IMG/VR virus record: IMGVR_UViG_3300031910_000015
Coordinates: 1 to 44,836 of that record
Strand: one strand, 5' to 3'
Length of the DNA: 44,836 bases
From: a virus
Taxonomy: Duplodnaviria > Caudoviricetes
Positions 5,630 through 22,817 of the stretch are shown here, one piece after another. Made by a program: the position numbers and the translations under genes. Positions within the stretch are counted from its first letter, which is position 1; each line of letters begins with the position of its first letter. The notes below the pieces were generated by a model. That model did not search any database, had not been told where the DNA came from, and saw only the letters and a program-made list of their open reading frames with translations.

Positions 5630-5633
5630 AGCC

Positions 5634-5924: not shown

Positions 5925-5927
5925 GTG

Positions 5928-6173
5928 CTACCCGAAGGTGACGGTGCCTTCGTCCAGCACCGTGCCATCTTCGGCCTCGATGACGACGTTGTCCTCGCCC
6001 TCGTAGCCGGTCGCGACAGTGACGACAAAGCTGCCGTCATTGACGCCGGTGTACTCGGACTTGTCGCCGTCTGCGTTGTTGTGGAACCGGGCGATGATGT
6101 GACCTTCTCCGTTGCCCTTGTCGTACGTGATGTCGTAGATGTCGCGGTTCGCGACCTTTGTCGCCTGTACCAT
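5928..6173 (-). CDS. hypothetical acidic beta-rich protein
   Basis: TGATG overlap with the SSB stop codon. Confidence 0.6.
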   Translation of the reverse strand: MVQATKVANRDIYDITYDKGNGEGHIIARFHNNADGDKSEYTGVNDGSFVVTVATGYEGEDNVVIEAEDGTVLDEGTVTFG

Positions 6174-7755: not shown

Positions 7756-7761
7756 GGCTTC

Positions 7762-8151
7762 CTAGCTCGGCAGCTGCGTTGCCTCCGGCGGCGCGTCGGC
7801 GGGCGGTGTGTCCGCAGGCGGCTGGTCGGGTTGGCCGTTGGCAGCAGTGCCGGTGATCGCGTCGGCCGCTGCCTTGACCTTGTCGGTCGCGGAGACGACG
7901 GCTGCCGATTCGTCGGTCAGGTCGGGATGCGACGCAACGTGATCGTTGACGGCGGCGATCAGTTCGTCGATGGCCGCGTTGAGATCGCTGAGTTGCTGAT
8001 CGAATGTCGCTTCGTCCACCAACTGGGATACCTCCTCGGTGAGAGTGACAAGTTGCTGGTGAATCTGGCGCAACTGCGCCGTATTGATGAGAGCCCAGAT
8101 AGCTGGCCCCCTTTCTGTAGTTGGGACGGTGGGATTGATCACCTCCTTCAT
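7762..8151 (-). CDS. hypothetical coiled-coil protein with Pro-rich tail
   Basis: ATGA overlap with the 8148-8390 stop gives start MKEVIN. Confidence 0.6.
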   Translation of the reverse strand: MKEVINPTVPTTERGPAIWALINTAQLRQIHQQLVTLTEEVSQLVDEATFDQQLSDLNAAIDELIAAVNDHVASHPDLTDESAAVVSATDKVKAAADAITGTAANGQPDQPPADTPPADAPPEATQLPS

Positions 8152-8390
8152 GGGCCTGCCTTCGCTTCGAGCGCGGACACTCGCGCCTCCAGGTTGGATT
8201 CGGCTTCTGCCGCAGTCTGATCGACGCGCTGAAGCTCGATGATCTGTGCCGTCAGGGAAGCCACGTTGCCTTGGAGTCGCTTGATCTGCTTCTCCATCTT
8301 GATTGGCGGTGGCGGCGCACTGTCGGCTACCGCGAGCCAGAACGACCCGGCTATCGCCGCAGCGATCAAAAGTGGGATCCAGAATCTCAT
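8148..8390 (-). CDS. membrane-anchored coiled-coil protein
   Basis: N-terminal hydrophobic helix, then a coiled coil; AGGAGG SD. Confidence 0.65.
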   Translation of the reverse strand: MRFWIPLLIAAAIAGSFWLAVADSAPPPPIKMEKQIKRLQGNVASLTAQIIELQRVDQTAAEAESNLEARVSALEAKAGP

Positions 8391-8416
8391 CTATGCCCCT
8401 CCTGGCGAGGTAACAA

Positions 8417-9046
8417 TCAATTTTCACACCTACTGGGCAATTCTAGGATCGCTTCGCGGTAGGTGCACAGAAAATCCTCGACCATATCTGCCGGCTTGTG
8501 TCGGAGTGGCTTCGGTAGGTAGTGCATCGGAATCTTGCGCTTGCGCTGGATAAGTTCGTTCTTGACGTATCCGCGCTTGACGAGCGCTTCCAGTCCTGCC
8601 TCGACGCCCGCGTGGATGTACAGCTGACGTGGCTCGACACCGAGCGCTTCGCCCAATCGGACAGCTGTATCGTAGACGGTCATCAATCCGATGCCGGAAA
8701 TACGCCATGACCAGAGGTATTCATACAACTGGTCGAACGTCTCGACATGGAGCATGATCGTCTGGCGCTCTTTCGTCCGCAGCTGATGCCACCAGACGGG
8801 CAGAATCTTGGCCTGTTTCGATTGGTGATTGTGCATCTTGCCGTTCGGGCGGCGAGCTAGAACAGCGCGGCTGATCGCCTGGTCAAATGATGTAGCCTCA
8901 TAGCAGTAGCGCGGGATGTCATCTTTGTACTTTGCGACCATCGAGTCAGGATTGTCGCGGCGCTCCTCGAAATCGCGCCAGAGCCCAAGTAGCGTGCTGG
9001 TGTCTTCGACCGGCGGGATGTTGGCCCATTCCCGGCTGATCTTCAT
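8417..9046 (-). CDS. helix-hairpin-helix DNA glycosylase-fold-like protein
   Basis: ISGIGLMTVYD (HhH-like), LYIHAG, VEDFLC. Confidence 0.5.
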   Translation of the reverse strand: MKISREWANIPPVEDTSTLLGLWRDFEERRDNPDSMVAKYKDDIPRYCYEATSFDQAISRAVLARRPNGKMHNHQSKQAKILPVWWHQLRTKERQTIMLHVETFDQLYEYLWSWRISGIGLMTVYDTAVRLGEALGVEPRQLYIHAGVEAGLEALVKRGYVKNELIQRKRKIPMHYLPKPLRHKPADMVEDFLCTYREAILELPSRCEN

Positions 9047-9447
9047 CCCTTTGCTCCCGGTGGCGCCCAGCGGCAGTTGCTAGGCTCGTAGTCGCCGTCA
9101 TGGTCAATCCGATGAAGATGCGTATTCTCCGGTCGATACCCCATGTCAGCGAGAAAGTTGGCATAGGTACGCCATCGGTCACAGACGCGGATTCCGCGAG
9201 CGCCGTATTGGGCATATCCGCGAGCGTTCGGATTGGTACAGCGTGTCAGCATGTTATCCCAACTGCGATGTGTCCGGAGCCACGCTGGATGACTCTTGTC
9301 TAGGTACTGGCCTGGTGGTGACGACTTATTGTGGCCATTGAGGAAGCGGTTGTAGTGTCCCGGTCTACTGCGGTTGATGCCAACCGGACGACCGCATCCA
9401 CATTCGCAGGTTGGTCTAGCGGCCTTCGTAGATTTCGTGCTCTGCAT
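9043..9447 (-). CDS. HNH homing-endonuclease-like protein with N-terminal CECGCG motif
   Basis: RCTNPN..Y..YGARGIRVCDRW..F.ADMG..P....RID..GDYEPSNCRWA; start uncertain. Confidence 0.8.
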   Translation of the reverse strand: MQSTKSTKAARPTCECGCGRPVGINRSRPGHYNRFLNGHNKSSPPGQYLDKSHPAWLRTHRSWDNMLTRCTNPNARGYAQYGARGIRVCDRWRTYANFLADMGYRPENTHLHRIDHDGDYEPSNCRWAPPGAKG

Positions 9448-10405
9448 AGGGGTTCCAGTTCTTTGTGGTAGATTCCATGAACTCGCGCCAGTCGGCCCCA
9501 ATCTCGTGTAGCTCGCAGATGTCGATGGCCCAGCAACCGGCGCAGGTGAACGGGCCTGCGTTCTTGACTACAACTTCAAGACCGCCCTCGCGGACGGCCT
9601 CGATAGTAGAGTGCTCGATTTGGACTCGATTGTACTGTTGATTCCGCTCGTTCGTTCCGCGACGTACAGGATGGCGGTCGAAGTAGGGCGCAGGTTGCTT
9701 CTGACTAACCGAGCCATCCTTGTTCAGGTATTGGCCGGCTGCGTTCACCGGGCGCTCGTCCGGCTTCGCCTTCCGCATGATGTTGAAGAGCACGCCGTCG
9801 ATCTCATCCTTACGCGAGAGCATTCCTTGGCGATGAAGAAACTCGACACCGAATGTGTAGTACGCGCTCGCCTGCGTATCAAGTAGCAGGTAGCGCGTCT
9901 GGATCGCGGCGGCAGTCTTGTGGTCGGGAATCCAGAGCTTGCCGGTGTCGGTGTGACGCCAGACTCCATCGAGCACGCCGACGTAAGTGAACGGCCTCGC
10001 ATGTTTGACGGGAATCTGGAACGGCATCTCAGTGACGACTACTTCCCATTGCCCGTCGTCTCCGTAATGGTCGATGTAGTGTTCCAGCATCGCCACCCCT
10101 AGATCGCCCGCGTTGACCCATCCTTCATCCTCCTCGACGCGGATGCCGAACTCGGACGCCTCGATGACGTCGCGCCGGTACAACTCAGCGAACGTCTCGG
10201 CAGGGTGCGGGCCGCGCGTCAAGCCTCGACGGTAGTAGCGGGCGAGCGCGGCATGTATCAATGATCCGAAGCGCAGGGGTGGTACATCGGTGACAGGTTT
10301 CCGTAGCTCCGCGAACTCCACGTGCCATTTGAACTGGCACCTCATGAACGTCGAGCGCTCCGACGTTCTGAGTAGATTTGGACGCTGCGGCTCGGCTCGG
10401 CTCAA
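9416..10405 (-). CDS. PD-(D/E)xK exonuclease (Cas4/RecB-like)
   Basis: TSERSTFMRC, FGSLIH, TE..GVLD..DHKT, QASAY, C-terminal CxxC..C; GGAGG SD. Confidence 0.85.
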   Translation of the reverse strand: MSRAEPQRPNLLRTSERSTFMRCQFKWHVEFAELRKPVTDVPPLRFGSLIHAALARYYRRGLTRGPHPAETFAELYRRDVIEASEFGIRVEEDEGWVNAGDLGVAMLEHYIDHYGDDGQWEVVVTEMPFQIPVKHARPFTYVGVLDGVWRHTDTGKLWIPDHKTAAAIQTRYLLLDTQASAYYTFGVEFLHRQGMLSRKDEIDGVLFNIMRKAKPDERPVNAAGQYLNKDGSVSQKQPAPYFDRHPVRRGTNERNQQYNRVQIEHSTIEAVREGGLEVVVKNAGPFTCAGCWAIDICELHEIGADWREFMESTTKNWNPYAEHEIYEGR

Positions 10406-10458
10406 TTCGTCCTCCTATTTGTTGGTACCGGCGGCGATTCGGCGGAATCGCTACGGAA

Positions 10459-10487
10459 AGCCTACTAGATAACAACCCCGGCGTCTA
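10459..10487 (-). promoter_or_regulatory. putative sigma70-type promoter for the exonuclease/replication operon
   Basis: Minus strand TAGACG-17 nt-TAGGCT. Confidence 0.45.
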
Positions 10488-10880
10488 GTCTTTTCTTTTT
10501 CCCTGGAAAAACCAGGGGTGCGCTTTCTCCCATACATTTCGATCCGGATTATCGAAATGCCAATGGCATTTCTTACACAATTCTATGTAGTCATTTAGAT
10601 CCCTTCTGTACTCACCCGAAACATTCGCCCATTCAGTGTGAAAGGGTGAACCAAGATAACCAGTGTTACAACCTGGCCTTGAACAGATGCCGGTTTTTAC
10701 TTTGTTCCTGTTCACCCACTTATGAATTGCCTGATATTCCATCGATTTACTATGTGTGGGCAATGGTGCCCTCCATTCGTACCCAAAATTCAGAGGTCGA
10801 GCAACCCTCGCGTATATACGGACGGACGCGCGGGCGGGCCCATCATTCAGCGGCGGCGAGGCAGTGTATCGGATAGCCAT
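10485..10880 (-). CDS. HNH endonuclease-like protein (true start probably MEYQAIH near 10742)
   Basis: Y.AIHKWV...C....C...EWANVSGEYRRDL.DY..LCKKCH; visibly more AT-rich than the flanks. Confidence 0.7.
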   Translation of the reverse strand: MAIRYTASPPLNDGPARASVRIYARVARPLNFGYEWRAPLPTHSKSMEYQAIHKWVNRNKVKTGICSRPGCNTGYLGSPFHTEWANVSGEYRRDLNDYIELCKKCHWHFDNPDRNVWEKAHPWFFQGKRKD

Positions 10881-10943
10881 CGTGCTCCGATCCAGTTTTT
10901 CGCCTAGACCGAACTGCTGGGCCCGCGAGCGCTTCCGTCCGTA

Positions 10944-12857
10944 CTACGCGCGGGCGCGAGGCTTGTTTCTGTGGGCGATTTGCCGGTGAACATCGAGAAC
11001 GATGTCGTTCAGGTTGCTCTTGAGGGCAGTTACACCCGCAATGTACTCCTCGACTGTGTTCAGCGACCTGTAGTAGAAGCAGCTGACCTGATGGAGCTTG
11101 TAAGCTCCGAGGATTCGATCGGTCAACTGCTCTTGATCGTCCGGGTTCCACGTCTCATCCATCACGTGGCAGGTATCCGCACGACCGAGGTCGATTGCCA
11201 CACCGCCGGCAGTCGTAGTCATGACGATCACTCTCGGGCCGTCACCAGATTGGAACGTGCGCTGGATCTCAGCCCGCTCGCCACGCTTGTTCGTGTCGCC
11301 GGTGAGCTTTAGACAGTCGATGCCTTGTTTAGGTAGCCAGTCCGCGATCATGTCCACCGTTCCCTTGAACTGGGACGCGATCACAGCTTGGCTATCACCG
11401 TCAGGATCGTCGGGATCAATCCCGGCTTCCTTTAGACGGTCGAGAAGGAACGGCAACTTGCCGCTGTCTTCGGTCGGACTCAGGTTGAGCACCATCTGTT
11501 TCCCGGTACCAGAGCAGTACCAGCACTCGTTGATGTCGTCGCGTTCCTTGTCCTTGCACCATTTGCAGGTCACTTCTTTCTCGATGACCAGCGAGTACGC
11601 ATTGGCGAATTGCTTCAACCGCAGATACTCGGTCAGGATGCAGTTGGACAGGAGGTGACGCTGCCCCTTGTCCGCCTCGACGTGGCCGATGACGAGTTCG
11701 GCAGCTTCCTCGAACTTGCGGTACTGTGCAGCCTGCGTCGGTGTCATTGGACACCACACGTCGATAGGTAGCTTCTTGGGCAGCTGCGGCAAGACTTCTT
11801 CACGGAGCCGACGCACCATGTACGGTGCATGGGCCGTGTAGAACTCTGCCTCACTACCCGGTTTCAGGCCATGAATCTCGCGGATAGTCTGTTGCCGTCC
11901 GCCTTTGACCCGAATCTGCTTCGTCTCGACGCGGAGCCACTGCTCAGCCCATCGCCACTTTGAGGTAAACGACTTCGGGTACATCAGCTGTAGTGGAGCG
12001 AACAGCTTGATCGGCTTACCGCCAATCGGAGTGCCGCTCAGGAACCACTTGCGTTTCGCCTCTAGCTGCTTCACTGCTGCGAAGAACTGAGACTTCGTAT
12101 TGGACAAACCAGTCCGGTGGAACTCATCCACCGTAACGCTATTCCAGGCTTCCAACGTGAACACGTCCGTGTTCTGTCGCACCATATGAGGCGTCGTCAC
12201 GAGCCAGTATCCCCGCATGACCGCCATAGCTTCGGCAATCGAATCGGGCATATCGGCTCGGACGTTTTGAGGCGTTTCGCCCGAGTAAGTGAACACGGGC
12301 ATGCGCTGCCATCGCTCTAGCTCGTAGCGCCAGACTGTTTCCAGGCTGGTCTGCGGAGCGATTACGAGATGCGGGCCTTCATGAATCCCCGCCTCGTAGA
12401 CGGCACCAATGACCTCTAGCGTTTTCCCCAGACGCGGCTGATTGCCGTTGATCGCGGAAGTCGCTGCCATGAACTTGATGTCCGCTCGCTGATAGGGCCG
12501 ATCTGGCCATCCTGTAGTCTCACCACGGATGAACGCATCGAGCCCCGGCAGCAGACCGGGCATGTTCACTAGCACAGCATCGTCCGAAAGAACCATGCTC
12601 GCTAGCGATTGCTCCTGGCTAACGGCATCGCGACCCCAGGTGACTAGGTCACGACCGAGCAGGAGTTGATCACCGAACAGTTGCCGGAGCCGTCGAGCCG
12701 TCGCCAGGTCGAGTGGTACGAGCCATGCTGGCCCGCCTCGTTCTGGCGGCAGGAATCGACGCCCAGGAACTGTCTTGATGTCCCTCACTGTACCGGCATC
12801 GAACGAGAAAGTCAACCGTATCGCTTCGCCGACCTTCTCTGCCATAATCTGAGACAT
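10944..12857 (-). CDS. SNF2-family helicase
   Basis: PRLGKT, VDEFH, LSGTP, MVRRL, SGKL, GVAIDL, WNP..EQ..DR; start at MSQIM after AAGGAGGGTAC. Confidence 0.9.
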   Translation of the reverse strand: MSQIMAEKVGEAIRLTFSFDAGTVRDIKTVPGRRFLPPERGGPAWLVPLDLATARRLRQLFGDQLLLGRDLVTWGRDAVSQEQSLASMVLSDDAVLVNMPGLLPGLDAFIRGETTGWPDRPYQRADIKFMAATSAINGNQPRLGKTLEVIGAVYEAGIHEGPHLVIAPQTSLETVWRYELERWQRMPVFTYSGETPQNVRADMPDSIAEAMAVMRGYWLVTTPHMVRQNTDVFTLEAWNSVTVDEFHRTGLSNTKSQFFAAVKQLEAKRKWFLSGTPIGGKPIKLFAPLQLMYPKSFTSKWRWAEQWLRVETKQIRVKGGRQQTIREIHGLKPGSEAEFYTAHAPYMVRRLREEVLPQLPKKLPIDVWCPMTPTQAAQYRKFEEAAELVIGHVEADKGQRHLLSNCILTEYLRLKQFANAYSLVIEKEVTCKWCKDKERDDINECWYCSGTGKQMVLNLSPTEDSGKLPFLLDRLKEAGIDPDDPDGDSQAVIASQFKGTVDMIADWLPKQGIDCLKLTGDTNKRGERAEIQRTFQSGDGPRVIVMTTTAGGVAIDLGRADTCHVMDETWNPDDQEQLTDRILGAYKLHQVSCFYYRSLNTVEEYIAGVTALKSNLNDIVLDVHRQIAHRNKPRARA

Positions 12858-12915
12858 GTACCCTCCTTTTCGTATACAGCTAGGGCTTTGTGTACTGGCC
12901 CCTAGCCAGTTGGAA

Positions 12916-13017
12916 CGGTGTCCCGCTCCTCCGAGAGCCACCGCGCGGAGGGTACAACAGACGCGATGACTCTCGGAGCAGCGGGGCGCGATAGGAGGAG
13001 CCTACCGCGCCACACCG
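12916..13017 (-). ncRNA. candidate three-way-junction antisense RNA or leader element with anti-SD loops
   Basis: Stems 12916-21/13012-17, 12922-27/12980-85, 12929-46/12961-78, 12986-95/13001-10; wobble pairs work on the minus strand; loops CUGUUGUACCCUCC and CUCCU. Confidence 0.55.
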
Positions 13018-13022
13018 CTCGC

Positions 13023-13349
13023 TCACTTGCCCCTCAGGGCAAGTCGCTGGGCTCTCGTCCGCGCCTTGATGACCGGCTTCTTGCTCCGAATCGCATCAAT
13101 TTGCTTCTGAGAGACACCCTTGATGGCTAGAACGCTCATTGTCGATACGGTACGCATGAACCCAAACCGACTATATCCGCCGCGAGGGTCAATAAACCGC
13201 TCGCTCCAGAATTGAATCAGCGGGTCTTTGCGCGTCCCGTGCTTCGTTTCGCCAGCCGGCAAGAACTGGTGGAACTTCTCGCACTTGTACTCGTCCACCG
13301 AATCGATGGACAGTTGGCCATCGTTGCTGAGTATCGAGGTTAGTACCAC
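13023..13349 (-). CDS. hypothetical protein (N-terminus may extend upstream)
   Basis: The frame continues upstream as TDEEIRQLIEGKTL with no ATG/GTG/TTG. Confidence 0.6.
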   Translation of the reverse strand: MVLTSILSNDGQLSIDSVDEYKCEKFHQFLPAGETKHGTRKDPLIQFWSERFIDPRGGYSRFGFMRTVSTMSVLAIKGVSQKQIDAIRSKKPVIKARTRAQRLALRGK

Positions 13350-13420
13350 CAGTGTCTTGCCTTCGATCAGCTGACGAATCTCCTCATCTGTACCAGGATG
13401 CGCTACTGTACCGACAAAGG

Positions 13421-13885
13421 CTAAGGGCGGCGCGACACCAGTTGGGCTCGCGTGCGATTCTTGGCCGGTGTCTTCTTGGCCGGTGTCTTCTTCGCAGCGG
13501 GCTTCTTGGCGGACGACTTCTTGGGCTCTGCCGGTGCATTCGGCGGACGCTTGCCGCGTCCGATGTAGCTCTCGTCCAGGTCGCCACCGGCCTCCTCATA
13601 CATCTGCCGGGCCGAGTTGATCGAGATGTCGGCACGAGCCGCGATCCGCTCCCAGCGCAGGTTCTGCTGGTCGCGAGCCTTCTTGACGTTGGCACCCGTC
13701 GCCTTGAACTTCAGGGACGGATCGGCCACCGGCTCCGCGTAGTACATCAGCTGGATCGCAGTGTTGCGACCCACCTTCATACCGGACTCGATGGCCTTGT
13801 ACACGTCGGCGTCTTTGTCGTCGCCGTCGAACTTGGCGACAATCTTCGCCGCCTTCTGGATCAAGCTCTCGTCGAGCTTGGCCAT
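13421..13885 (-). CDS. HTH DNA-binding protein with histone-H1-like PAKK tail
   Basis: LRWERIAARADISINSARQMY helix-turn-helix; tail KKPAAKKTPAKKTPAK. Confidence 0.7.
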   Translation of the reverse strand: MAKLDESLIQKAAKIVAKFDGDDKDADVYKAIESGMKVGRNTAIQLMYYAEPVADPSLKFKATGANVKKARDQQNLRWERIAARADISINSARQMYEEAGGDLDESYIGRGKRPPNAPAEPKKSSAKKPAAKKTPAKKTPAKNRTRAQLVSRRP

Positions 13886-14005
13886 GATACCCTCCTTCCG
13901 TGGATTTGTAACGACAGCCGAGGTAGAGTATACCTCATCAGCTGCCGGATGGCTAGGGGTAGCTCATCCAGGCCTCACCCGCGTTTACAGGTGAGACCTG
14001 CATTG

Positions 14006-14284
14006 CTACGCCACGAGCTTTAGCGCTGGAAATCGCCCCTTTATGCGCCGGTTGATGAACTGCCCGACGCTCGGAGCATACGCTGCGGCGACCGCTCGCT
14101 GTCTACTCACTCCAAAGTAGACGTAGGTGTTTCCGGTCAGGTACGTGACGTACATGTTGCCGAAAACATCCCAGCCGACTCGTCGGACGTTCGAGCTTTC
14201 AACGATGCGGAAGTTGACGAAAACATCCTGCGGTGGTCTACCCGGCAGGCGCACGGGGATGCTGTCATTCTTCGTCACCATCAT
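14006..14284 (-). CDS. KTSC domain protein
   Basis: VESSNVRRVGWD...YVYFGV......APSVGQFINRRIKGRF matches the KTSC pattern. Confidence 0.85.
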   Translation of the reverse strand: MMVTKNDSIPVRLPGRPPQDVFVNFRIVESSNVRRVGWDVFGNMYVTYLTGNTYVYFGVSRQRAVAAAYAPSVGQFINRRIKGRFPALKLVA

Positions 14285-14528
14285 CTTCACTTGGCTCTGC
14301 GATCCTTCGACCATAAACGACACGCTCCAGAAAGTCGGTCATATGCTGGAGACAGAATGCGAACACCAGTGGTTCATCCTCATCTTCTACTTCTAGGACA
14401 ATTCCCACAGTTCGGATGTGCTCGTCACAGTCGTCTTCACTCGGACGATTTTTGGCCATACATGCGTGGCCCCAAGTGTCGATCAGTACACCAACCTGCG
14501 CGAACTGATCTGGATCGACATGCGCCAA
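14265..14528 (-). CDS. hypothetical Cys/His-containing protein
   Basis: TTG start right after the start-associated motif. Confidence 0.6.
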   Translation of the reverse strand: MAHVDPDQFAQVGVLIDTWGHACMAKNRPSEDDCDEHIRTVGIVLEVEDEDEPLVFAFCLQHMTDFLERVVYGRRIAEPSEDDGDEE

Positions 14529-14595
14529 AGTGTACCCTCCTTTCTTCGTTGTTGACCTTCCGAGCCCGTCTCCGTGACGAGACGGACTCGCGAGG

Positions 14596-14799
14596 TCAAG
14601 TGATGACCTTGTTCGCCTTCAGTAGCTGAATGATCGTGCTCCGGTCGGCGTTGATCCCGCCGGTACGAGCTAGCCACATTGTGTAGTCGATGATCTCGCC
14701 GCGATTCTTGAACTCGGCAGAGAAAATCTCCTTGTTGGTCGCCGTCTTGACGGTGATGACGTTGCCAGACCTCGTTACTTGTAAGTCGAGCTTTGCCAT
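14596..14799 (-). CDS. hypothetical protein
   Basis: Starts immediately after the DUF6011 stop codon. Confidence 0.65.
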   Translation of the reverse strand: MAKLDLQVTRSGNVITVKTATNKEIFSAEFKNRGEIIDYTMWLARTGGINADRSTIIQLLKANKVIT

Positions 14800-15342
14800 C
14801 TACCACCCGGCACCTTGTGCGCAGATCGGGCCGATGCCACGAGCGCGAGAATCAGCATCGGTCAGAGTGCGGCCACAGATGCCGCACTTGCCAAGCTCGC
14901 GCCCGAAGCGCATGCTGGCTTCCTTTGGATTCTCGGCGATCTTGTCGAGGATGAACTTCTTCGACTCCTTGTTGCGAATCGGATGAAGCTCATCGCTCGC
15001 GCGAACGCTGAGGAATGTCCAGCCTGACCATTTGCCCGAACTCGGGCGATCCACGTGGTAGAACTGGAGCACACCTTGCTCGTTCTCGACTGCGTAGCGT
15101 CCCGCCGGCACCATGGGCCACTGATCAGCCCGGATCACCTGACGCTTCGGTAGCAGCTTCATGGCGTCGATGACGCGCGAGGCTTGCTCCCGATTGATCT
15201 GCGTGTTCTCCTCGGTGTCACCGAGCTTCTCATCGAGCCACTGCTGCTGCTCTTCCGAGATGACACGCTGAGCCATCAGGTCTTTGATCCAGATGATCTG
15301 CGGCGTCGTGGCGGGCTTGTCTTTGTGCACGACTTCCGTCAT
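14800..15342 (-). CDS. DUF6011 domain protein
   Basis: C-terminal CGICGRTLTDADSRARGIGPICA. Confidence 0.8.
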   Translation of the reverse strand: MTEVVHKDKPATTPQIIWIKDLMAQRVISEEQQQWLDEKLGDTEENTQINREQASRVIDAMKLLPKRQVIRADQWPMVPAGRYAVENEQGVLQFYHVDRPSSGKWSGWTFLSVRASDELHPIRNKESKKFILDKIAENPKEASMRFGRELGKCGICGRTLTDADSRARGIGPICAQGAGW

Positions 15343-15417
15343 ACTGTACCCTCCTTCCTGGTCAGGAGCATATGCTCCCGCACCTACCCCGACCGCAGTG
15401 GGGTAGGAACGGCAGCA

Positions 15418-15771
15418 TTACTTCTTCTTGCTGCTGCGCTTGAACGTACTCGGTCGCTTCTTGGACTCTTCAACCGGAGTGCTAGACCACTTCTGGAGTT
15501 TCTTCGTAGGCCCAACCTCAACCTGGATCGAAGCCATCGGTAATCTGCCGAGTACGGGCTTGACGAGCAAGAACTCGTTGCCGCGCTTGTGCTCGATGGT
15601 GAACTCGCGTTCCTTGATCACCACCTTGCGCTCACCTTTCTTGAACGCGCGACGGATGATATTCTGACTCGCGACGGTGAGCAGATCGCCGCTGCTGAGC
15701 GTTGTATGCGTTGGTTTGCGCGATCTAGTCACGGCCGAAGCCTTGGGGCAGTTCAGCACCTTCGGCTTCAT
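15418..15771 (-). CDS. hypothetical basic protein (start uncertain)
   Basis: Fills the operon gap; Lys-rich C-terminus. Confidence 0.55.
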   Translation of the reverse strand: MKPKVLNCPKASAVTRSRKPTHTTLSSGDLLTVASQNIIRRAFKKGERKVVIKEREFTIEHKRGNEFLLVKPVLGRLPMASIQVEVGPTKKLQKWSSTPVEESKKRPSTFKRSSKKK

Positions 15772-16048
15772 CGAGTACCGATTCGACCCCTTCCCAATTA
15801 CTCATGGGATCGTTAGCCATCGATTCGATGTCGATGTCCGCCACAGCGTTGAGCTTCTCACCCAACGCACTGCCCTGAAGATTCTCGGGCAGATTGTCGC
15901 GCCAGTCGATGTACTCTTGCTGGACTTCGGCTAGGTTCTGGAACGCGCTCGCGAGGTCGTCCTGATGCTCCTTGACGCCTTCGTACGCACTCCGAGCCTC
16001 TTGGATCGCGTCATTCCAACGCGCAGTCCGGCTCTTCTGCTTCGCCAT
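15725..16048 (-). CDS. hypothetical helical protein
   Basis: Start-associated motif; W.DNLPENLQGS..GE.L pattern. Confidence 0.7.
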   Translation of the reverse strand: MAKQKSRTARWNDAIQEARSAYEGVKEHQDDLASAFQNLAEVQQEYIDWRDNLPENLQGSALGEKLNAVADIDIESMANDPMSNWEGVESVLDEAEGAELPQGFGRD

Positions 16049-16107
16049 TGTACCCTCCTTTCGTAGTGCGGGATTGCACCGGAAGGCTCGCTTGCGCGAG
16101 CCAACCG

Positions 16108-16413
16108 CTACATCACGTCACTGTCGTCCATCGCCGGCATGTACTCGATCCGGCGGATCGGCGTCGGCTGCCAGACGGTGCCGACTTCCTTGTTCTCGGG
16201 CATCTTCCAGACGGTGCCCGTTCCTTGGCTCACGTAGAACTCCTGTCCAGCGCCATCGAAGCATGTCCAGCCTGCGTCCCAGCAATACATGCTAGGTTCG
16301 TACGGTTGGAACTCCTCGACCGTGAGCTTGGCGGTCACCCACTGGACTCGAACCGGAATCTGTCCGTTGTCGGACTCTTCCAATTCCAGGCCCCAGAGAT
16401 CAGTCTCGATCAC
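16108..16413 (-). CDS. hypothetical acidic protein
   Basis: Overlaps the end of the upstream gene. Confidence 0.55.
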   Translation of the reverse strand: MIETDLWGLELEESDNGQIPVRVQWVTAKLTVEEFQPYEPSMYCWDAGWTCFDGAGQEFYVSQGTGTVWKMPENKEVGTVWQPTPIRRIEYMPAMDDSDVM

Positions 16414-16795
16414 GTCGGTTCACTTCCATCAGTACCTTGCGGTACTTGGCGGTCGTCTGCATCCTGCCGTTGAGCCATCCGCGTCGCTTGTACTCAGCGA
16501 GTAGGATGGACGCGACCTTGGTATCGGAAGCGTGTCCGACATATAGGTCGATCAGATCGGTATTCTGCAAGCCCTCGGGGTTGAGAACGCCTCGGAGTAG
16601 CAGGTAGATTTGATACGCCGCCAACACATCCGTTTTCTTGCGGCCACACTGCAGGCCATAGTGCTCACGGACGAACTTGGCGATGCTACGACCGCTGGAG
16701 TGCTTCATACCGATGCACTCCAACCTGAGCGCTCCCAGCTGCGAGAGCATGAACCAAGCGCGGATTTGATCCGGCTGGTCTAGCATGATTTCCAT
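16400..16795 (-). CDS. hypothetical protein
   Basis: Start MEIML follows the start-associated motif. Confidence 0.7.
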   Translation of the reverse strand: MEIMLDQPDQIRAWFMLSQLGALRLECIGMKHSSGRSIAKFVREHYGLQCGRKKTDVLAAYQIYLLLRGVLNPEGLQNTDLIDLYVGHASDTKVASILLAEYKRRGWLNGRMQTTAKYRKVLMEVNRRDRD

Positions 16796-16859
16796 GTACC
16801 CTCCTTTCAATTGTACTCGAATGAGCACAAGCCGAGACGGTCATTGTCCCGGCTTCTAC

Positions 16860-17024
16860 TCACTTGACGATGATCTGAACGGTCTTGCCAGCGAGTAGCT
16901 CGTCGATGGCGACGGCGATCTCATTCATCGAGATGCCTTCTTCAGACTTGAAGCCGTAGTCGTTTGACATCAGCTTCAGAGTCATCGACATCGCGCGCAG
17001 CTTATCACCGTCTTTCTTGGTCAC
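16860..17024 (-). CDS. 54-aa hypothetical protein (not in the ORF track)
   Basis: GTGA overlap with the DUF2786 stop; MTKKDGDKLRAM...QIIVK. Confidence 0.6.
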   Translation of the reverse strand: MTKKDGDKLRAMSMTLKLMSNDYGFKSEEGISMNEIAVAIDELLAGKTVQIIVK

Positions 17025-17995
17025 TTCTCGATCCCCTTTCTGCTACCGGGCATCGTGGAGCCGCGAGTCTCGATGCGAGCTTCGGCGCCAGCCTGACCAC
17101 CCTTGGCCATCGACGCCCAGTTGACCGCTCGGGTGTCCGCGCGACCGCGTACCGGCTTGCGCTTGTCCTTGCAAGCTCGGCATTGACAGCCTTGTTCGTG
17201 CGGACGAAGATCGCCGAACATGTCGTACATCGCTTCGCGGGCGATGTCACGCGCGTCCCTGAGCGCCGGCAGAAGGCTTCCAGTTGCTGCCTCCTGCTCG
17301 CCGCGCATAGCGCGCAGCCGCTCTTGGATCTTGTAGGTGTATCCCCAGGCGAAGTTCCGTTGGTGCGTCTCGGGGTTGGTCTGCTTCACTGGTTCGATGC
17401 CCTGACGCTCACACTCGCGCCGGTACATCTTCACCCAGCTTCCCTTGACGGTGGACGGGCCGGTGATGGCATCCAGCTGTCCAGACCAGTTCGCGATCTG
17501 AACCCAAGACATTCCGGCCTCCTTGCCGCGCGTGATGTTCTGCGCTAGCGTGAGGTCGGGGTTGAACTTCGGCTGGGTCTTGTCCACCATCTGCAGGTAG
17601 AGACTCGTGAACAGCATGTTCGCGTAGTTGAGGTCGCTGCTCAGGCCGAACACCGGCATCTTGTACCGGCTATCGCCTTCACCTTGACCCGACGCGAGCT
17701 TGCTGGTCGCGATCACGCAGGAGCAGTGAGACATGATCGAAGCGAACAACGACCACAGCTGCTCATGGATCGGTGAACGGAAGTACCAGCCGAAGTCCAT
17801 TTCGTGCATCTCGGGCTTCAGAGCGCTCGTGTCGCCGCGTTGCCTCGCCTCCCATTCCTCGATGGCGTACTTCGCCATCATGTCGTCGGCGCGACGGAGA
17901 CATTGCTCACGTTCATGCTCGAACTCGGTTGACTCAGCACGGGCGATCAAAGCCTGGACTTTCCTCAGGATGTCATCCCGATCAAACTTACTCAT
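17021..17995 (-). CDS. DUF2786 domain protein
   Basis: ILRKVQALIARAEST..EHE......A..MMAKYAI N-terminus; start-associated motif. Confidence 0.8.
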   Translation of the reverse strand: MSKFDRDDILRKVQALIARAESTEFEHEREQCLRRADDMMAKYAIEEWEARQRGDTSALKPEMHEMDFGWYFRSPIHEQLWSLFASIMSHCSCVIATSKLASGQGEGDSRYKMPVFGLSSDLNYANMLFTSLYLQMVDKTQPKFNPDLTLAQNITRGKEAGMSWVQIANWSGQLDAITGPSTVKGSWVKMYRRECERQGIEPVKQTNPETHQRNFAWGYTYKIQERLRAMRGEQEAATGSLLPALRDARDIAREAMYDMFGDLRPHEQGCQCRACKDKRKPVRGRADTRAVNWASMAKGGQAGAEARIETRGSTMPGSRKGIEK

Positions 17996-18071
17996 GTACC
18001 CTCCTTTCGTGGTGTCCGGATGAACACCGTGCCCCGCGCGGGGAGAGTATGGCGCGGGACACGCTGGCCAA

Positions 18072-18332
18072 TTACGGACTTGGCCGACCTTTGTACGGAT
18101 GAGCGAGGTCTTCACTGAAGTCTGGCGGCAGATACGTGCCTTTGACGGGCTCGATGTGCCAGATCCATTTCTTCGCTTGGTCGAACACCGATGATGCTTC
18201 AAACGCATCGATGAACTCCATTGCATCGACGCTGTCATCGAGCACCTTGACTATTTCGATGCCGGCGAATGGATCCGTGGCATGTGACGATTCAGGATTG
18301 ATTTCCGGCCTGAACAACATGATGACCTGCAT
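18072..18332 (-). CDS. hypothetical protein
   Basis: Start-associated motif. Confidence 0.65.
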   Translation of the reverse strand: MQVIMLFRPEINPESSHATDPFAGIEIVKVLDDSVDAMEFIDAFEASSVFDQAKKWIWHIEPVKGTYLPPDFSEDLAHPYKGRPSP

Positions 18333-18409
18333 CTATTTGTACCCTCCTTTCTAGTGACCTCATGGCCACTGACCTACGCTCCCAACCGAGAGGGAGCGCA
18401 AGCCACTGG

Positions 18410-18667
18410 TCACTCGACCAATTCCGCCTCGAAGCTCATGAGGCAAGTTGTGATCAGATCGTCGCCTACGTCATGTACGATGGCGAACCAGTCTGAGGTC
18501 TTGCCCAGACGTTCCAGTTCGTCTCTGAGTTCCCATGCCGTGGGCCCATCGTCGCCCCAGTCTTCATCCAGCGACTTGAAAACTGCGACCACCTCGACGA
18601 TTGGATCTGTGCCCATGGCCTCAGGGTCGATCACCCGTAGCTGATCGCCAGGGCGCGGTGTCTTCAT
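18410..18667 (-). CDS. hypothetical acidic protein
   Basis: GAAGG upstream; operon packing. Confidence 0.6.
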   Translation of the reverse strand: MKTPRPGDQLRVIDPEAMGTDPIVEVVAVFKSLDEDWGDDGPTAWELRDELERLGKTSDWFAIVHDVGDDLITTCLMSFEAELVE

Positions 18668-18959
18668 CCTTCACCACCTCGACGTCATCGAACTGCCAGA
18701 TGAACTGAGGCTCAGGGTCGTACCATTCCGGAGCCGGAGTGTTGTTATGCGAGGCAAAATGATCCGTCTCGCCGTCCTTGAACCTGACGGTCAAGTTCGG
18801 CGGAATCATGTAGCCTTGGCCGGTGTCGTCATCGACGTCACCATCGCAGTCGGTGATGCTCTCGGCGATTCCTACTTGCTCGGGATCGTCACCGACCTTG
18901 ATGGTGTCGCCTACTTTGAATGGCGTCTCGCGCCAGTCCCAGTAGATGTCGTCACTCAC
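18621..18959 (-). CDS. hypothetical acidic protein
   Basis: GTG start (MSDDIYW) after GAGGAG. Confidence 0.6.
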   Translation of the reverse strand: MSDDIYWDWRETPFKVGDTIKVGDDPEQVGIAESITDCDGDVDDDTGQGYMIPPNLTVRFKDGETDHFASHNNTPAPEWYDPEPQFIWQFDDVEVVKDEDTAPWRSATGDRP

Positions 18960-19131
18960 TTTTGCGCTCCTCGCGCTCGACGATGAAGCTCGTTGCTCCG
19001 AGTTCCAGTGCCGCCTTCTGGAGCTTGGCGACCTGCGCATCGGTATGCTCGACACGCTTGATCATCACCTTCTCCGTGTCCGGTGGGACGATGGTCGGCC
19101 CTTGATTGAAGACGATAGTGATGTAGAACAT
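18952..19131 (-). CDS. 59-aa hypothetical protein (not in the ORF track)
   Basis: MFYITIVFNQGP...; start-associated motif. Confidence 0.65.
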   Translation of the reverse strand: MFYITIVFNQGPTIVPPDTEKVMIKRVEHTDAQVAKLQKAALELGATSFIVEREERKSE

Positions 19132-19323
19132 GTACCCTCCTTACGGTTTTGGTGACCAGATGATCACCGGGCCATCTCGCTGCCAGACTCGAACTGGCAT
19201 GGATCCTTACGAGATGACCCGCTGCTCACCTCTGTATGTTCACGAAGCAACCGGGCCTACATGGTTCACCCGGTCTTGCTCCACAGATCGAGCAAGGCAG
19301 CCTGATGTAGCCCTTGGGCTTGT

Positions 19324-19443
19324 TCACTGCCGTCGGTTGGTCTTTTTGATCTCTTTCTTCACTCTGTGCCAATGCTTCTCCTTGAATGAGAGGAAAAATC
19401 CGATGGAGATGACGGTGCCGACGATGTCGAGCACGTAGCTCAT
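19324..19443 (-). CDS. 39-aa single-TM peptide with basic tail (not in the ORF track)
   Basis: MSYVLDIVGTVISIGFFLSFKEKHWHRVKKEIKKTNRRQ; ATGA coupling. Confidence 0.55.
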   Translation of the reverse strand: MSYVLDIVGTVISIGFFLSFKEKHWHRVKKEIKKTNRRQ

Positions 19444-19682
19444 GTCTTCACCACCTTGTCAACCTGGATCCGAAAGCGGTTGCCTTCGGCGTCATCCACG
19501 ATGGCGATCATGCCGCTGCCTCGACTGCAGGCAGATACAGGCGTCAACGCCAATCCATGGCTGACGTAACCGGGGCTTGTCAGCAAGATCATCATTTGAG
19601 CTTCGGCATCTGTCTTGGGGACAAACGTCGGAAGATCAGACATGATCCGTGTAGCAAGCTCCTTGGCTTCCTGCTCTTCCAT
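19440..19682 (-). CDS. hypothetical protein
   Basis: MEEQEAK after the start-associated motif. Confidence 0.65.
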   Translation of the reverse strand: MEEQEAKELATRIMSDLPTFVPKTDAEAQMMILLTSPGYVSHGLALTPVSACSRGSGMIAIVDDAEGNRFRIQVDKVVKT

Positions 19683-19750
19683 GTACCCTCCTTTCATGGT
19701 GCTCTCATGAGCACCGGAACGCCCATCTCGGTTGATGGGCGAACCGCTAC

Positions 19751-20098
19751 TCATTGCATTGACAGAATGAAGATCTGCCATTCGGGCGGTTGTATGACGA
19801 TGATCGTGCCGCCCGGCTCGTAGTGCCACATCATGGCAAGCTCGGTGATGATGCGAGCCTCGGCTTCATCTTGCGCCCAGACATCGATTTCCTCGATGCT
19901 ACGGAACTCGATGCGCGGCCCATTCTCAGGGTCGCCTGGGTCATACGGGTCGTAGCCGATGTATGCTGTCCACGGCTTGCACCGATCCATGTAGGCGACG
20001 GACGCCTTGTCGATGAACTCGTAGCCGTTTTTGCCGGTCTGGATGATCTCGCAGATCGGCCTGCCGTCGATCTTCGGCTCTTGAGTCGGCTTGCTCAC
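19751..20098 (-). CDS. hypothetical protein
   Basis: GTGA coupling with the upstream gene. Confidence 0.6.
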   Translation of the reverse strand: MSKPTQEPKIDGRPICEIIQTGKNGYEFIDKASVAYMDRCKPWTAYIGYDPYDPGDPENGPRIEFRSIEEIDVWAQDEAEARIITELAMMWHYEPGGTIIVIQPPEWQIFILSMQ

Positions 20099-20385
20099 AG
20101 CGTTCGCCCCAGATGGTAAATGGCGCTGAACATCTGTTTGTCGTTCGCCAGACCCTTGTTCGGCAGATGCGAGCCCTCGATGACGTACCGAGGATCGAGC
20201 AGCTGATTGGGAATCGACCAGCGCCTGATGGTAGCGCCCATGGACTTTGCAATCCGAGCAACCGCGTCTCGATTGGCGCGATTGGCGTAGGACTGCTCCA
20301 TCGGCCCCCAGCCCGCTTGGCAGATGCGCTCCGCCAGCTTGAAAATGGTCTCGTCGTCCAAGACCACCTTGGCAAGGTTTTCCAT
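20095..20385 (-). CDS. hypothetical protein
   Basis: MENLAK after the start-associated motif. Confidence 0.65.
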   Translation of the reverse strand: MENLAKVVLDDETIFKLAERICQAGWGPMEQSYANRANRDAVARIAKSMGATIRRWSIPNQLLDPRYVIEGSHLPNKGLANDKQMFSAIYHLGRTL

Positions 20386-20455
20386 GTACCCTCCTTTTTG
20401 GTGTTGGCAGCGAATGCTACCCGAAGCCCGGACTCGGTTATCCGGGCAACGGCTA

Positions 20456-20722
20456 TCATCGGCTCCAGTAATTCGGCAAACTGCCGGCAACTGCCTGACA
20501 AGACTGGCGGTCATATTCATACATGCTCAGATCGCCTTGGTTCGTTGCTCGGTTGAGGATGTCCTCACAGTGTTGCTCGAATGCCGGGATGTTGAACTTC
20601 CCGGTTACATACCGAACCGTTGGGGTTGGTGTTGTCGCTTGCGTCGGCGTTGTCGCTTGGGCTACGTTGACGCCGATAGCTATGGCGAGTGCTGCCAATA
20701 TGATCGCAAACAGAACTTTCAT
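20456..20722 (-). CDS. small secreted protein with signal peptide, Thr/Pro linker and Cys pair
   Basis: MKVLFAIILAALAIAIGVNVAQA signal-peptide pattern; TTPTQATTPTPT linker. Confidence 0.7.
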   Translation of the reverse strand: MKVLFAIILAALAIAIGVNVAQATTPTQATTPTPTVRYVTGKFNIPAFEQHCEDILNRATNQGDLSMYEYDRQSCQAVAGSLPNYWSR

Positions 20723-20802
20723 GTACCCTCCTTCTGGGTGTTGTCTTCCGACCGGCTATGCGCTTTGCTGCGCACACCCGGCCGGGCAACTTTTGATTGC
20801 CC

Positions 20803-21224
20803 GACCCCCGAAAGGAGAGGGTACGTTGTCTCGTGTCACCCATTGTCGTTGTATTCCTGGCAACCTACGGTTGCTCTCATGGGCTCAAGACGGTTGGCCT
20901 TGACCGGAGGGCCATTATGCTCGGGCTCTTATTGACGTATGGGCCGTAGGCGTCATACGCGCGCACAACGAGCATGTGTTGACGTCTCTCGGTTGTACCG
21001 CCTAGTTCAGATTGGTACTACGCCAGGTTGACTTCGTTTGGAGATTTCTTCCCGTCAACCTACGCTCGTGTTGACGCGTGGGTCAGGTTTCCCAATCTTC
21101 CCGTTGGCCTCGCGATTGCCCAGCCGCCGGTCGGTACGCCAAAGGACGTTGCCTAACGACTGGATCCGATTGGTAGCTCTTTGGTTTTCTCTCCAACTAC
21201 CCGGCTGACCCTCTTTCGGGGGTC
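20803..21224 (-). ncRNA. candidate large structured RNA (~420 nt)
   Basis: No convincing ORF; ends 20803-14 and 21213-24 are a perfect 12-bp inverted repeat; many internal stems. Confidence 0.5.
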
Positions 21225-21477
21225 AACCGGCTAGATGGCCGTAGCAGCGTCTTTTGCCCTGCTGTACCCAAACGGCGGCTTCCGCGCGGCAAAGCTCCTT
21301 GGTGTCCTTGTCGCGGTAGTTGCACACGCCCTTTTCGTAGATGACGTAGGTCGCGGAGGATTGCTCCAGGGATGCCGGTCGAGATTGGCCTCCGTCCCGC
21401 AGCCTTTTGACGTTCACCGGCCGCTTTTTTGGGCTCTTAGTTGTACCCTCCGGACGTACCATGTCCTGTTTTTCCAT
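21223..21477 (-). CDS. hypothetical basic protein with C-terminal Cys/His cluster
   Basis: AAAGGAGGTGA SD; C..C..C..H. Confidence 0.65.
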   Translation of the reverse strand: MEKQDMVRPEGTTKSPKKRPVNVKRLRDGGQSRPASLEQSSATYVIYEKGVCNYRDKDTKELCRAEAAVWVQQGKRRCYGHLAG

Positions 21478-21540
21478 TTTGCCTCACCTCCTTTCTACCT
21501 TCCTTATTCTAGCGGATCGCTGTTGTTGACGGGAGTTGGG

Positions 21541-21580
21541 GTAATAGGGAGGGGCGGCTTTCGCCGCCCTACCCTATTGC
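21541..21580 (-). terminator. long GC hairpin with GAAA loop after the HTH gene (terminator or processing site)
   Basis: About 18-bp interrupted stem, gtaatagggaggggcggc/gccgccctaccctattgc. Confidence 0.5.
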
Positions 21581-21581
21581 C

Positions 21582-21860
21582 CTAGCTCCGGGCGAGGAGC
21601 GCGCCCGTCCCGAGCGCGGTAGTCCCCTTGCCGGTGTAGATGACGTCGCCCTTTTCGAGTTCGAGCTTCTTGACGCGCCCGACCGAGATGCCGTAGGCGA
21701 CCGCGATCCGCTCGTACCGGACGCCCTTGGCGCGGTGCTTCCGGACGCGCGAGGCAGTTGGGTTCTCGCCCGCGGGTACGCGGAGCGCCTTCGGTGAGCC
21801 CGACTCCAACTCGTCCTGGTAGAACGAGATGGGCAGTCGGATGACTTTCTTCTTGGCCAT
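21582..21860 (-). CDS. HTH DNA-binding protein, paralogue of 13421-13885
   Basis: VRYERIAVAYGISVGRVKKL..IYTGKG; AAGGAGG SD; TACAAT upstream at about 21939-44. Confidence 0.7.
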   Translation of the reverse strand: MAKKKVIRLPISFYQDELESGSPKALRVPAGENPTASRVRKHRAKGVRYERIAVAYGISVGRVKKLELEKGDVIYTGKGTTALGTGALLARS

Positions 21861-22156
21861 TTTGGCCTCCTTCCGGGCACGCGCGCGTCGCGCGGGCCCA
21901 TTCTCCGGCTCGGGGCTCATCCCCGGCCGCGTAAGTCAATTGTAGCGCGCGGCCGTGGGGCGTGGGTGCGAAGGGTGGAGTCGAGATCGGTGGGGTGGGG
22001 GCGGTGCGTCGCCTGAGGAGAGAACGCACGTGGGTGAGACCACACCGCGAACGCAGGCGGAGAGCCGAATCGCGACCGCGCGAGCCCATCCGCGACCTCG
22101 AAAAAGAAACTCTCGCGGGACTCCGGATGAACTAGTGGTCATCTCAATGGTATGCA

Positions 22157-22296
22157 CAATTTCATGCCTAAGCACACCCAATTCCTACAAAAAAAACACC
22201 AGATTTCCAGGAAAAACTCAATTTTCAGAAAATTTCACACAATTTTCCATTCGTTCGCCACAATTCGGCCCAATTCGGCCCAAAAATCCCCAATTC
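22157..22296. other. phased A/T tracts (predicted bent DNA) at the strand switch
   Basis: AATT or A-tracts about every 10 bp, including the tandem CAATTCGGCC x2 at 22261-22280. Confidence 0.75.
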
Positions 22297-22505
22297 CCTC
22301 GCGCGCGCGTACGGAGGGAAACGCCCGCCTCCCCATCCACCTCTCTAAGCATGAAAACGCACGTTTGTATCGCTCTACCTACGCGCGAAGCATAATTGAA
22401 TACGGTATACTCGCGTAGAGCCGAAGCACCGTGCACTTCGGCCCACCCGGCGCCACCACCGCCCGTGCGCCAGCCTCTCCCTACGCGCGAGACAAGGACA
22501 AAACA

Positions 22506-22817
22506 ATGAATGCTAAGGAGCGCAGCACCAAGAACATCGTCCAGAACGTGGTAAATGACGGCAACAAGCGCCTCGACGCAGCAGCCGCCAAGCTAGGTCT
22601 GCCCATGGATGGCAGCGGCCCAGCCCCAGATAGCAAGATTGCGCCCTGGCGCGATGAAGAGGAGCGCGAGACTATGTGTGCTGAGTATGAAGCCATGGTC
22701 GCCAGGTACATCTTCTTCGGATGGGAGCTACGGCGGCTGAGCAAGTTCCACCCGACGCCAGCCCAGCGTGCAGTTCGGCAGCTGATGCAGGAGCAGCAAG
22801 CGCAGCCGTCCGACTGA
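22506..22817 (+). CDS. hypothetical protein, first gene of the right arm
   Basis: AAGGA SD before MNAKERS. Confidence 0.65.
   Translation: MNAKERSTKNIVQNVVNDGNKRLDAAAAKLGLPMDGSGPAPDSKIAPWRDEEERETMCAEYEAMVARYIFFGWELRRLSKFHPTPAQRAVRQLMQEQQAQPSD

Follow-up and report, generated by a model that had tools for sequence, protein, structure and literature searches.

Short hairpins between the genes of a soil phage are one half of a two-state RNA signal that probably marks RNase III processing sites

What kind of RNA signal recurs between the short genes of a soil phage? The question was raised by IMGVR_UViG_3300031910_000015, a 44.8-kb linear viral record originating from soil metagenomes, which was analysed over its full length of 44,836 nucleotides and is called the window here. 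Its minus strand carries, at 12857-20733, a block of short genes, most of them without a known family, which from position and make-up is likely an early operon. An initial annotation had pointed to eight short minus-strand hairpins with an AUNN loop in this block, each following a longer hairpin and standing just upstream of a shared ribosome-binding site (RBS). These hairpins turned out to make up one half, the second, of an RNA signal that lies between the early genes and has two states. Ten copies of this element were found within 12912-20460, all on one strand, each between a stop codon and a strong Shine-Dalgarno sequence (SD). Comparison of sequences suggested that the elements are probably host ribonuclease III (RNase III) processing signals in the early operon, and that each cut would leave both pieces capped by a hairpin.

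The hairpins themselves were confirmed. All eight folded as drawn, with energies of -5.4 to -11.4 kcal/mol, and seven had a C-AUNN-G loop. The four upstream hairpins described as 3 bp, a UU/UU (or UU/UG) internal loop and 7-8 bp were also present. What had gone unnoticed was an upstream strand, a fixed G.G mismatch and two further copies at 14560 and 12928. Positions were numbered from the G.G mismatch as 0, with plus pairs toward the loop and minus pairs away from it. Strand a is the strand at the upstream stop codon, b is the 5' arm of the short hairpin and c is the strand of its 3' arm; P1 denotes the long stem and P2 the short hairpin. In every window copy, b could pair instead with a, at the upstream stop codon or immediately behind it, and this pairing would prolong the long hairpin downward through the one-by-one G.G mismatch to about 20 bp. 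In seven of the eight window copies the long fold was at least as stable as the tandem hairpins, and the two folds differed by 0.8-8.4 kcal/mol. The upstream stop codon lay inside a or at its edge in all nine window copies looked at. The copies in the window were as follows.

20406-20460, minus strand: element 1; a 20460-20454 (UGA of the open reading frame (ORF) 20456-20722), G.G 20453/20420, P1 20452-20421 with UU/UU at +4/+5, P2 20421-20406, predicted 3'-strand cut between 20422 and 20421.
19698-19754, minus strand: element 2; a 19754-19748 (UGA of ORF 19751-20098), G.G 19747/19714, P1 19746-19715, P2 19715-19698, predicted cut between 19716 and 19715.
19151-19229, minus strand: element 3; a 19229-19223 (UGA of ORF 19226-19372), G.G 19222/19167, P1 19221-19168 with a branched top, P2 19168-19151.
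18353-18413, minus strand: element 4; a 18413-18407 (UGA of ORF 18410-18667), G.G 18406/18369, P1 18405-18370, P2 18370-18353, its first pair A-U instead of G-C.
18011-18071, minus strand: element 5; a 18071-18065 (directly after the UAA of ORF 18072-18332), G.G 18064/18027, P1 18063-18028, P2 18028-18011.
16811-16863, minus strand: element 6; a 16863-16857 (UGA of ORF 16860-17024), G.G 16856/16828, P1 16855-16829, P2 from 16829 with one additional outer pair.
16065-16115, minus strand: element 7; a 16115-16109 (UAG of ORF 16108-16413, its last base being the mismatch G), G.G 16108/16079, P1 16107-16080, a weak P2 16080-16065 with a 6-nt loop.
15364-15420, minus strand: element 8; a 15420-15414 (UAA of ORF 15418-15771), G.G 15413/15377, P1 15412-15378, P2 from 15378.
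14553-14598, minus strand: element 9, new; order a-G-P1-G-b, G.G 14591/14560, no short hairpin, 26 bits with the covariance model.
12912-12986, minus strand: element 10, new, in the helicase leader; G.G 12979/12928, a fully paired long P1, a 14-nt loop at 12961-12948 complementary to the shared RBS, P2 12929-12912.

To see which parts of the element are fixed, copies from relatives were compared. Relatives were found by helicase and pattern searches of viral contigs, with many copies per contig. A script gave 74 hits, and 4 judged false (window 12895; L089 6647 and 6856; L165 11278) were removed to leave a set of 70 copies, outside which window copy 12928 stands. An RBS-pattern search of viral contigs gave 77 loci, of which the matches in two close relatives were used, and DUF2786 as bait gave zero loci. 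The upper stem was 10-14 bp long in 59 of the 70 copies, and the lower helix consisted of 7 bp plus the G.G mismatch, fading at -8. Pairs +2 and +3 were mostly G-C. Position +5, the mirror position of the mismatch, was U.G or U.U in 50 copies; +4 was unpaired in 7 and +5 in 14, and the internal loops, where present, were symmetric UU/UU. The start of the short hairpin lay one base before the mismatch G, on its 5' side. It took in +1 in 53 of 55 copies, and +2, +3 and +4 in 19, 15 and 17 of them.

The AUNN loop did not hold up as a recognised motif, because outside the window just 11 of 47 short-hairpin loops were AUNN. The C-A-U of the apparent loop motif complements an (R)UG that belongs to strand a, and the first and second loop bases were paired with a in 44 and 38 of 55 copies when the other fold formed. 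The tandem hairpin was not the motif either, since the short hairpin was missing in 15 of the 70 copies. These results indicated that the element rests primarily on its long stem.

The placement of the elements was not random. An SD-anchored script found the G.G long stem in 8 of 12 shared-RBS leaders, compared with 9 of 480 dinucleotide-shuffled leaders and none of the 20 other AGGAGG-plus-start sites of the window. The long stem and the short hairpin together occurred in none of the 480 shuffled leaders. The script flagged the short hairpin in seven of the eight leaders, and the eighth was seen by separate folding. A looser descriptor without the SD anchor was unspecific, with about 12 matches per shuffled strand, and was rejected. 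When the mismatch was left free, G.G was the best choice in 63 of 105 SD-linked elements before an SD and start; these loci had been seeded with a G..G pattern, so that a few copies per contig were forced. G+C-rich hairpins directly after stop codons might also be intrinsic terminators or attenuators between genes. We gave this reading next to no weight, because a U-tract was lacking (UUUU in 0 of 70 spacers), no terminator-like site was found on the minus strand of 12700-22600, and terminators need neither the G.G mismatch nor an alternative fold. In an Rfam search the window was without a match, and the six weak hits in 12700-22600 were all far under the gathering threshold.

Covariation supported both folds. 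Pairing between a and b was seen in 405 of 490 cells in the 70 copies, compared with 271 (maximum 305) when a and b were swapped between copies. The window copies alone gave 47 of 56, compared with 35.1 in swaps (p=0.0015). Mutual information in columns -7 to +10 was above at least 998 of 1000 shuffles each, and that of column -8 was not. In addition, a MAFFT alignment was made of the 45 copies that had an upper stem of 26-34 nt and a short hairpin. The long fold on this alignment was 87% paired, with two-sided changes in 18 of 19 pairs, and slid controls reached 36-43%. The short hairpin was 86% paired, with two-sided changes in 6 of 7 pairs, and its slid controls reached 34-49%.

A covariance model (R1) detected 5-22 copies in each of five records, and six in the window. 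It gave nothing above 14 bits on the more distant outgroup phages G004, G005 and G165, and nothing on BRock, where the script also gave no convincing copy in 1-20000. A pattern scan of 185,579 genomes gave 43 matches, none of which, judged by eye, had the full fold in an intergenic setting, and it pointed to no host. The element-bearing phages formed one clade, with helicases 49-86% and terminases 56-93% identical. One IMG/VR record of the clade, G162 (129,757 bp), consists of two related genomes of about 65 kb end to end, with two helicases, terminases and KTSC genes, so that per-record counts are not independent events. A second leader motif was seen on the minus strand of L085 (G003) at RBS sites 7188 and 6314, in two copies with a common long hairpin, differing flanks and no G.G.

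Contigs from four DNA runs contained strain variants only, and no RNA run was listed as containing the DNA of the window. In one contig of run X8 (depth 2.7), an extra base lay in the loop of element 6 (window 16819) and gene 16860-17024 (16859-17021) was skipped; either strain variation or an error may lie behind this difference. The missing gene recalls a DNA-level explanation, in which the elements are cassette boundaries forming single-stranded DNA hairpins for gene shuffling. The genes between elements vary among relatives, and L002 has an additional gene with a full element. However, this explanation is highly improbable. As the initial annotation had proposed, the G.U pairs were specific to the mRNA strand: seven of the eight short hairpins had one and folded 0.4-4.7 kcal/mol worse on the plus strand, the exception being 19698-19715. 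These G.U/U.G pairs and the G.G match to ribosomal RNA (rRNA) stems described below favour an RNA of the coding strand. The sequences are also too divergent for a recombinase site, and the shared RBS can account for homologous swaps.

How would such an RNA work? With so sharp a start at +1, the short hairpin looks built for an RNA whose first base is N, immediately 5' of the 3' G. If an enzyme of the RNase III family cut at N with a 2-nt overhang, its centre would lie between +2 and +3. In the proposed mechanism, the a:b long stem would be the first fold to form as the RNA is transcribed. A dimer of RNase III, its centre two pairs above the mismatch, would then nick the 3' strand at ^N-G, as in precursor rRNA (pre-rRNA) stalks, and the 5' strand might sometimes be nicked too, at G-NNN^. 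Strand c would displace a from b, perhaps aided by a ribosome stopping on a. The downstream mRNA would thus start with a flush hairpin of 5-9 bp before a strong open SD, and this hairpin would block RNase J or 5'-end-dependent decay. The stop codon would stay on the upstream mRNA, and where only one strand had been nicked, the upper stem would stay there too as a 3' hairpin. Folding predicted a flush hairpin before an open SD for the cut product in six of the eight window copies.

The geometry was consistent with this mechanism. About 2 x 10 bp lie around the centre between +2 and +3, compared with the approximately 22 bp reported for RNase III substrates (PMC3867540). The stem lengths and the covariation gave the roughly two helical turns that a bacterial RNase III site requires. 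For the E. coli enzyme, G-C is described as preferred between the cuts (Taggart et al., bioRxiv 2023.03.12.532304), which agrees with the mostly G-C pairs at +2 and +3 here. The window helicase and terminase had their nearest proteins in actinobacteriophages, at about 30% and 40% identity. No RNase III domain was found in the five phage records searched. RNase III and RNase J genes were found in all five actinobacterial genomes tested, the RNase III matches lying below the curated cut-off.

Pre-rRNA stalks were then compared, the ^N-G register having been fixed from the short-hairpin start before any rRNA stem was examined. Forty loci were fetched and 24 16S and 9 23S stems were scored; the others lacked anchors or flanks. 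In the sampled Actinomycetota, a G.G was found at the matching place, at the boxA-like G, in 15 of 24 16S and 4 of 9 23S processing stems, with U-A at -1, U.G or U-A at -2 and C-G at +5. The mismatch lay at +69 past the 16S end in B. subtilis and at +66 in S. aureus. RNase III is reported to cut 67 nt downstream of the 16S end in B. subtilis (PMC4838370, PMC6144821) and at U+64 in S. aureus (PMC3386247), so that both published cuts mapped to ^N-G within 1 nt. The stalks of these Gram-positive species (B. subtilis III-2, S. aureus U+64) thus share with the phage elements the G.G, W-W at -1, Y-R at -2 and Y-G at +5, and their published cut lies, to within 1 nt, at the ^N-G predicted for the elements. 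They differ in being long-range stems that are cut on both strands and have no refolding strand c. The "eighth residue A or T" of PMC4838370 was A in all four B. subtilis-type operon copies and did not fix the register. A published S. coelicolor site at +52 (PMC4681348) lay in another stem and was discarded as a register check.

A different register was weighed on the same stems. The RNase III cut might lie at the foot of the long stem (CAU-NNN^, as in T7 R1.1). Ribosomes that terminate on a would melt a:b and let the short hairpin form, which would resist cleavage, so that processing would be a switch coupled to translation. Strand b reads G-W-G-N-N-C-W, which agrees with a portion of the consensus WNAGWGNNCWUNNN^NAWGNNCWCUNW given for E. 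coli (PMC5141509). The -5 pair was G-C in 37 of 70 copies and the -6 pair U-A in 42 of 70, the stop codon sits within or at the edge of a in all nine copies, and the energy gap between the folds is as given above. However, such a switch leaves unexplained the sharp start at +1, the two-sided helix of 10+10 bp and the G.G match to rRNA cuts. The -5/-6 pairs may merely complement a UGA stop codon, helicase-leader copies lack them, and a 5'-strand cut in that register would take away the upstream stop codon. We consider this switch unlikely.

Cutting by another enzyme was considered from the ends of the hairpins, namely RNase P, for which a short hairpin with a CCA end would resemble a tRNA, or Mini-III at a site of the WSS^W type. 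The CCA end was present in 27 of 55 short hairpins, and the central two pairs were G-C, as in the Mini-III sites of PMC5141509. The other 28 ends differed from CCA, so that the (R)CCA of an RNase P substrate was not general, and the CC was accounted for by pairing with G-G at +1/0. The W pairs that flank a Mini-III site were mostly C-G or G-C here, and copies without a short hairpin retained the long stem, which speaks against either enzyme. Together these points made this reading very unlikely.

RNase III processing with a refolding 5' hairpin was left as the preferred reading, and several points weigh against it. The 15 copies without a short hairpin lack the part that would cap the downstream product. 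The products of elements 7 and 8 were predicted to refold onto the SD, with the 5' base paired at 0.10 and 0.40. All 70 copies come from one clade, so that they are not independent. The SP82 cut is said to fall 5' of an internal-loop A, which would be 1-2 nt off ^N-G. The rRNA stems have A-U pairs at +1 to +4, where the phage stems are mostly G-C. With the G.G column left out, the rRNA-stem pair profile scored -18.0 at shift 0 and -17.6 and -17.5 at shifts -4 and -5, which did not single out the register. The B. subtilis 16S 3' end is given as UCU or UCUA (PMC5427494) and UCU was assumed for S. aureus, so that the rRNA match holds only to within 1 nt. Finally, G-C pairs that flank the scissile bond or occupy position 2 of the proximal box are disfavoured for E. 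coli (PMC1540722), and the upper half-site has them.

The initial annotation had guessed at a processing or stabiliser element analogous to the RNase III sites of T7 and SPO1, and the sequence evidence as a whole supports that guess. If the mechanism is true, its base-level predictions describe a clade of uncultured soil phages that turned a host rRNA-processing signal into punctuation stabilising both products. The module of about 60 nt (stop, cut, 5' hairpin and SD) would then be a compact part for turning operons into stable monocistronic mRNAs in Gram-positive hosts.

The copy in the helicase leader raised a further question, because its loop was complementary to the shared RBS.

12857-20733, minus strand: twelve near-identical RBSs, AGGAGGGUA, at the heads of short genes of the putative early operon.
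12948-12961, minus strand: anti-RBS loop of element 10 in the window.
About 3395 in L002, the leader at 2880 in L085 (G003) and about 5788 in L302 (G161): anti-RBS loops in relatives.

The shared RBS AAGGAGGGTACA occurred 11 times, compared with 0.05 expected, and AGGAGGGTA occurred 12 times, every one on the minus strand. The loop of element 10, which has a counterpart at 3423 in L002, paired with all twelve window RBSs at -15 to -21 kcal/mol. It tracked the RBS variant of each phage, with GGAGGGUAC in G000, G002 and G003 and GGAGGGUCA in G161. The loop was found in four of nine genomes, and it was not seen in the regions read of the two G162 genomes, though the RBS is uniform there too. Folding, with pseudoknots outside the model, did not predict that a cut frees the helicase SD, which was paired at 0.67 before and 0.70 after. 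These observations raise the rather improbable prospect of a processing code with an off-switch. Most copies would be nicked once, self-capping both products, and the one fully paired copy would be cut twice, freeing an anti-RBS hairpin of about 45 nt that silences all early cistrons in trans. Such silencing would account for the identity of the RBSs outside the SD core. A cis role of the loop on the next gene would fit equally well.

Might a phage protein bind the elements instead? One gene in the operon offered a candidate.

14006-14323, minus strand: KTSC-domain gene inside the operon, candidate partner of the element.

A protein-binding site, for example for this KTSC protein, might govern the stability or translation of each cistron. 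KTSC has been described as RNA-binding (PMC7824862). The gene was present in the window and in all seven other main element-bearing records (G002, G003, G161-G164 and G166), in none of three element-lacking outgroup phages and in 1 of the 37 records that had no folded element. However, the element-bearing phages form one clade and the co-occurrence is thus one event; ancestry accounts as well as function for a gene found in each of the eight main carriers but seldom outside them. Six further clade-like records, which are fragments, had KTSC in three, and the conserved core mimics a host substrate and is also seen in SPO1. A protein site of this kind is accordingly a doubtful explanation, though KTSC could modulate cleavage. 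The gene is a core gene of the phage clade and lies inside the element-punctuated operon.

Other features of the window were recorded beside these. Before the first shared RBS, about 490 bp on the minus strand (20730-21220) were rich in hairpins and held no clear gene, and a 27-bp hairpin stood upstream of them at 21532-21589; the two are likely a promoter or leader region. A sigma-70 consensus was not found ahead of the first shared RBS, the promoter scan being at chance level. At 13458-13532, 15-nt repeats encode the Lys/Ala/Pro-rich tail of a 154-aa protein (13421-13885), which had 13 homologues, no named one among them. An FAD/NAD oxidoreductase, an HAD-type hydrolase and their neighbours on the minus strand (276-2002 and 8417-9046) are possibly, as a guess, a nucleotide-modification cluster. 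On the plus strand, 35381-41544 encodes two neighbouring proteins of about 1000 aa with long Ala/Pro/Val/Ser/Thr-rich repeats.

How do the elements compare with known systems? The initial annotation had called their form unrecognised, which did not stand, because the G.G core is common to SPO1 early leaders and Gram-positive pre-rRNA stalks. We found no description in the open-licence literature of the G.G at the proximal box as a feature common to rRNA stalks, SPO1 leaders and these phages; it departs from the E. coli consensus.

In SPO1 (NC_011421), the early leaders of genes 44, 56, 57, 58 and 59 had the G.G core (a-G-C ... G-G-AGC) with U-A or G-C flanks and C-G at +1. Their a:b helix had 6-7 of 7 pairs, and b could pair with c in an alternative hairpin. 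We take these five leaders to be the SPO1 RNase III sites, although NC_011421 carries no such annotation. RNase III sites in SP82 early mRNA were reportedly described by Panganiban and Whiteley in 1983 and by Mitra and Bechhofer in 1994. As in SPO1 and SP82, the window elements are long hairpins repeated in an early operon ahead of strong SDs, and they have the G.G core, the C-G at +1 and the a:b lower helix defined from the SPO1 sequence. In contrast, SPO1 has an asymmetric loop of 2-3 nt directly over C-G(+1), and its b:c hairpin is bulged and weak, at -4 to -6 kcal/mol. The stem above is paired in the window elements, or has UU/UU at +4/+5, and their b:c hairpin is perfect and flush. SP82 targets are described as cut once, on the downstream side (PMC1935012); the asymmetric loop that goes with this single nick was not found here, the loops being symmetric. 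R1 did not detect the SPO1 sites.

The early polycistronic mRNA of T7 is likewise cut into protected pieces (PMC8708148), and single-strand RNase III cuts leave 3' hairpins (PMC3867540), which the elements would share with sites such as R1.1. T7 sites differ in their E. coli box preferences and their A-U-rich proximal box. We know of no G.G core or refolding 5' hairpin in them. In the cspA 5' untranslated region of S. aureus, an RNase III cut leaves a shorter 5' hairpin, and the mRNA becomes stabler and more translated (PMC3386247). This is the same kind of stabilising short hairpin, but in one chromosomal leader with a double cut rather than in a repeated intercistronic module. The AGNN-tetraloop substrates of yeast Rnt1p, which cuts 14-16 bp from the loop (PMC3867540), resemble the elements only in the look of a tetraloop starting with A; the phage stems are 5-9 bp long and their loop is not conserved. 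T7 and SP82 already provide known cases of RNase III punctuating phage early mRNA, and the form described here is an uncatalogued variant of the SPO1/SP82 type.

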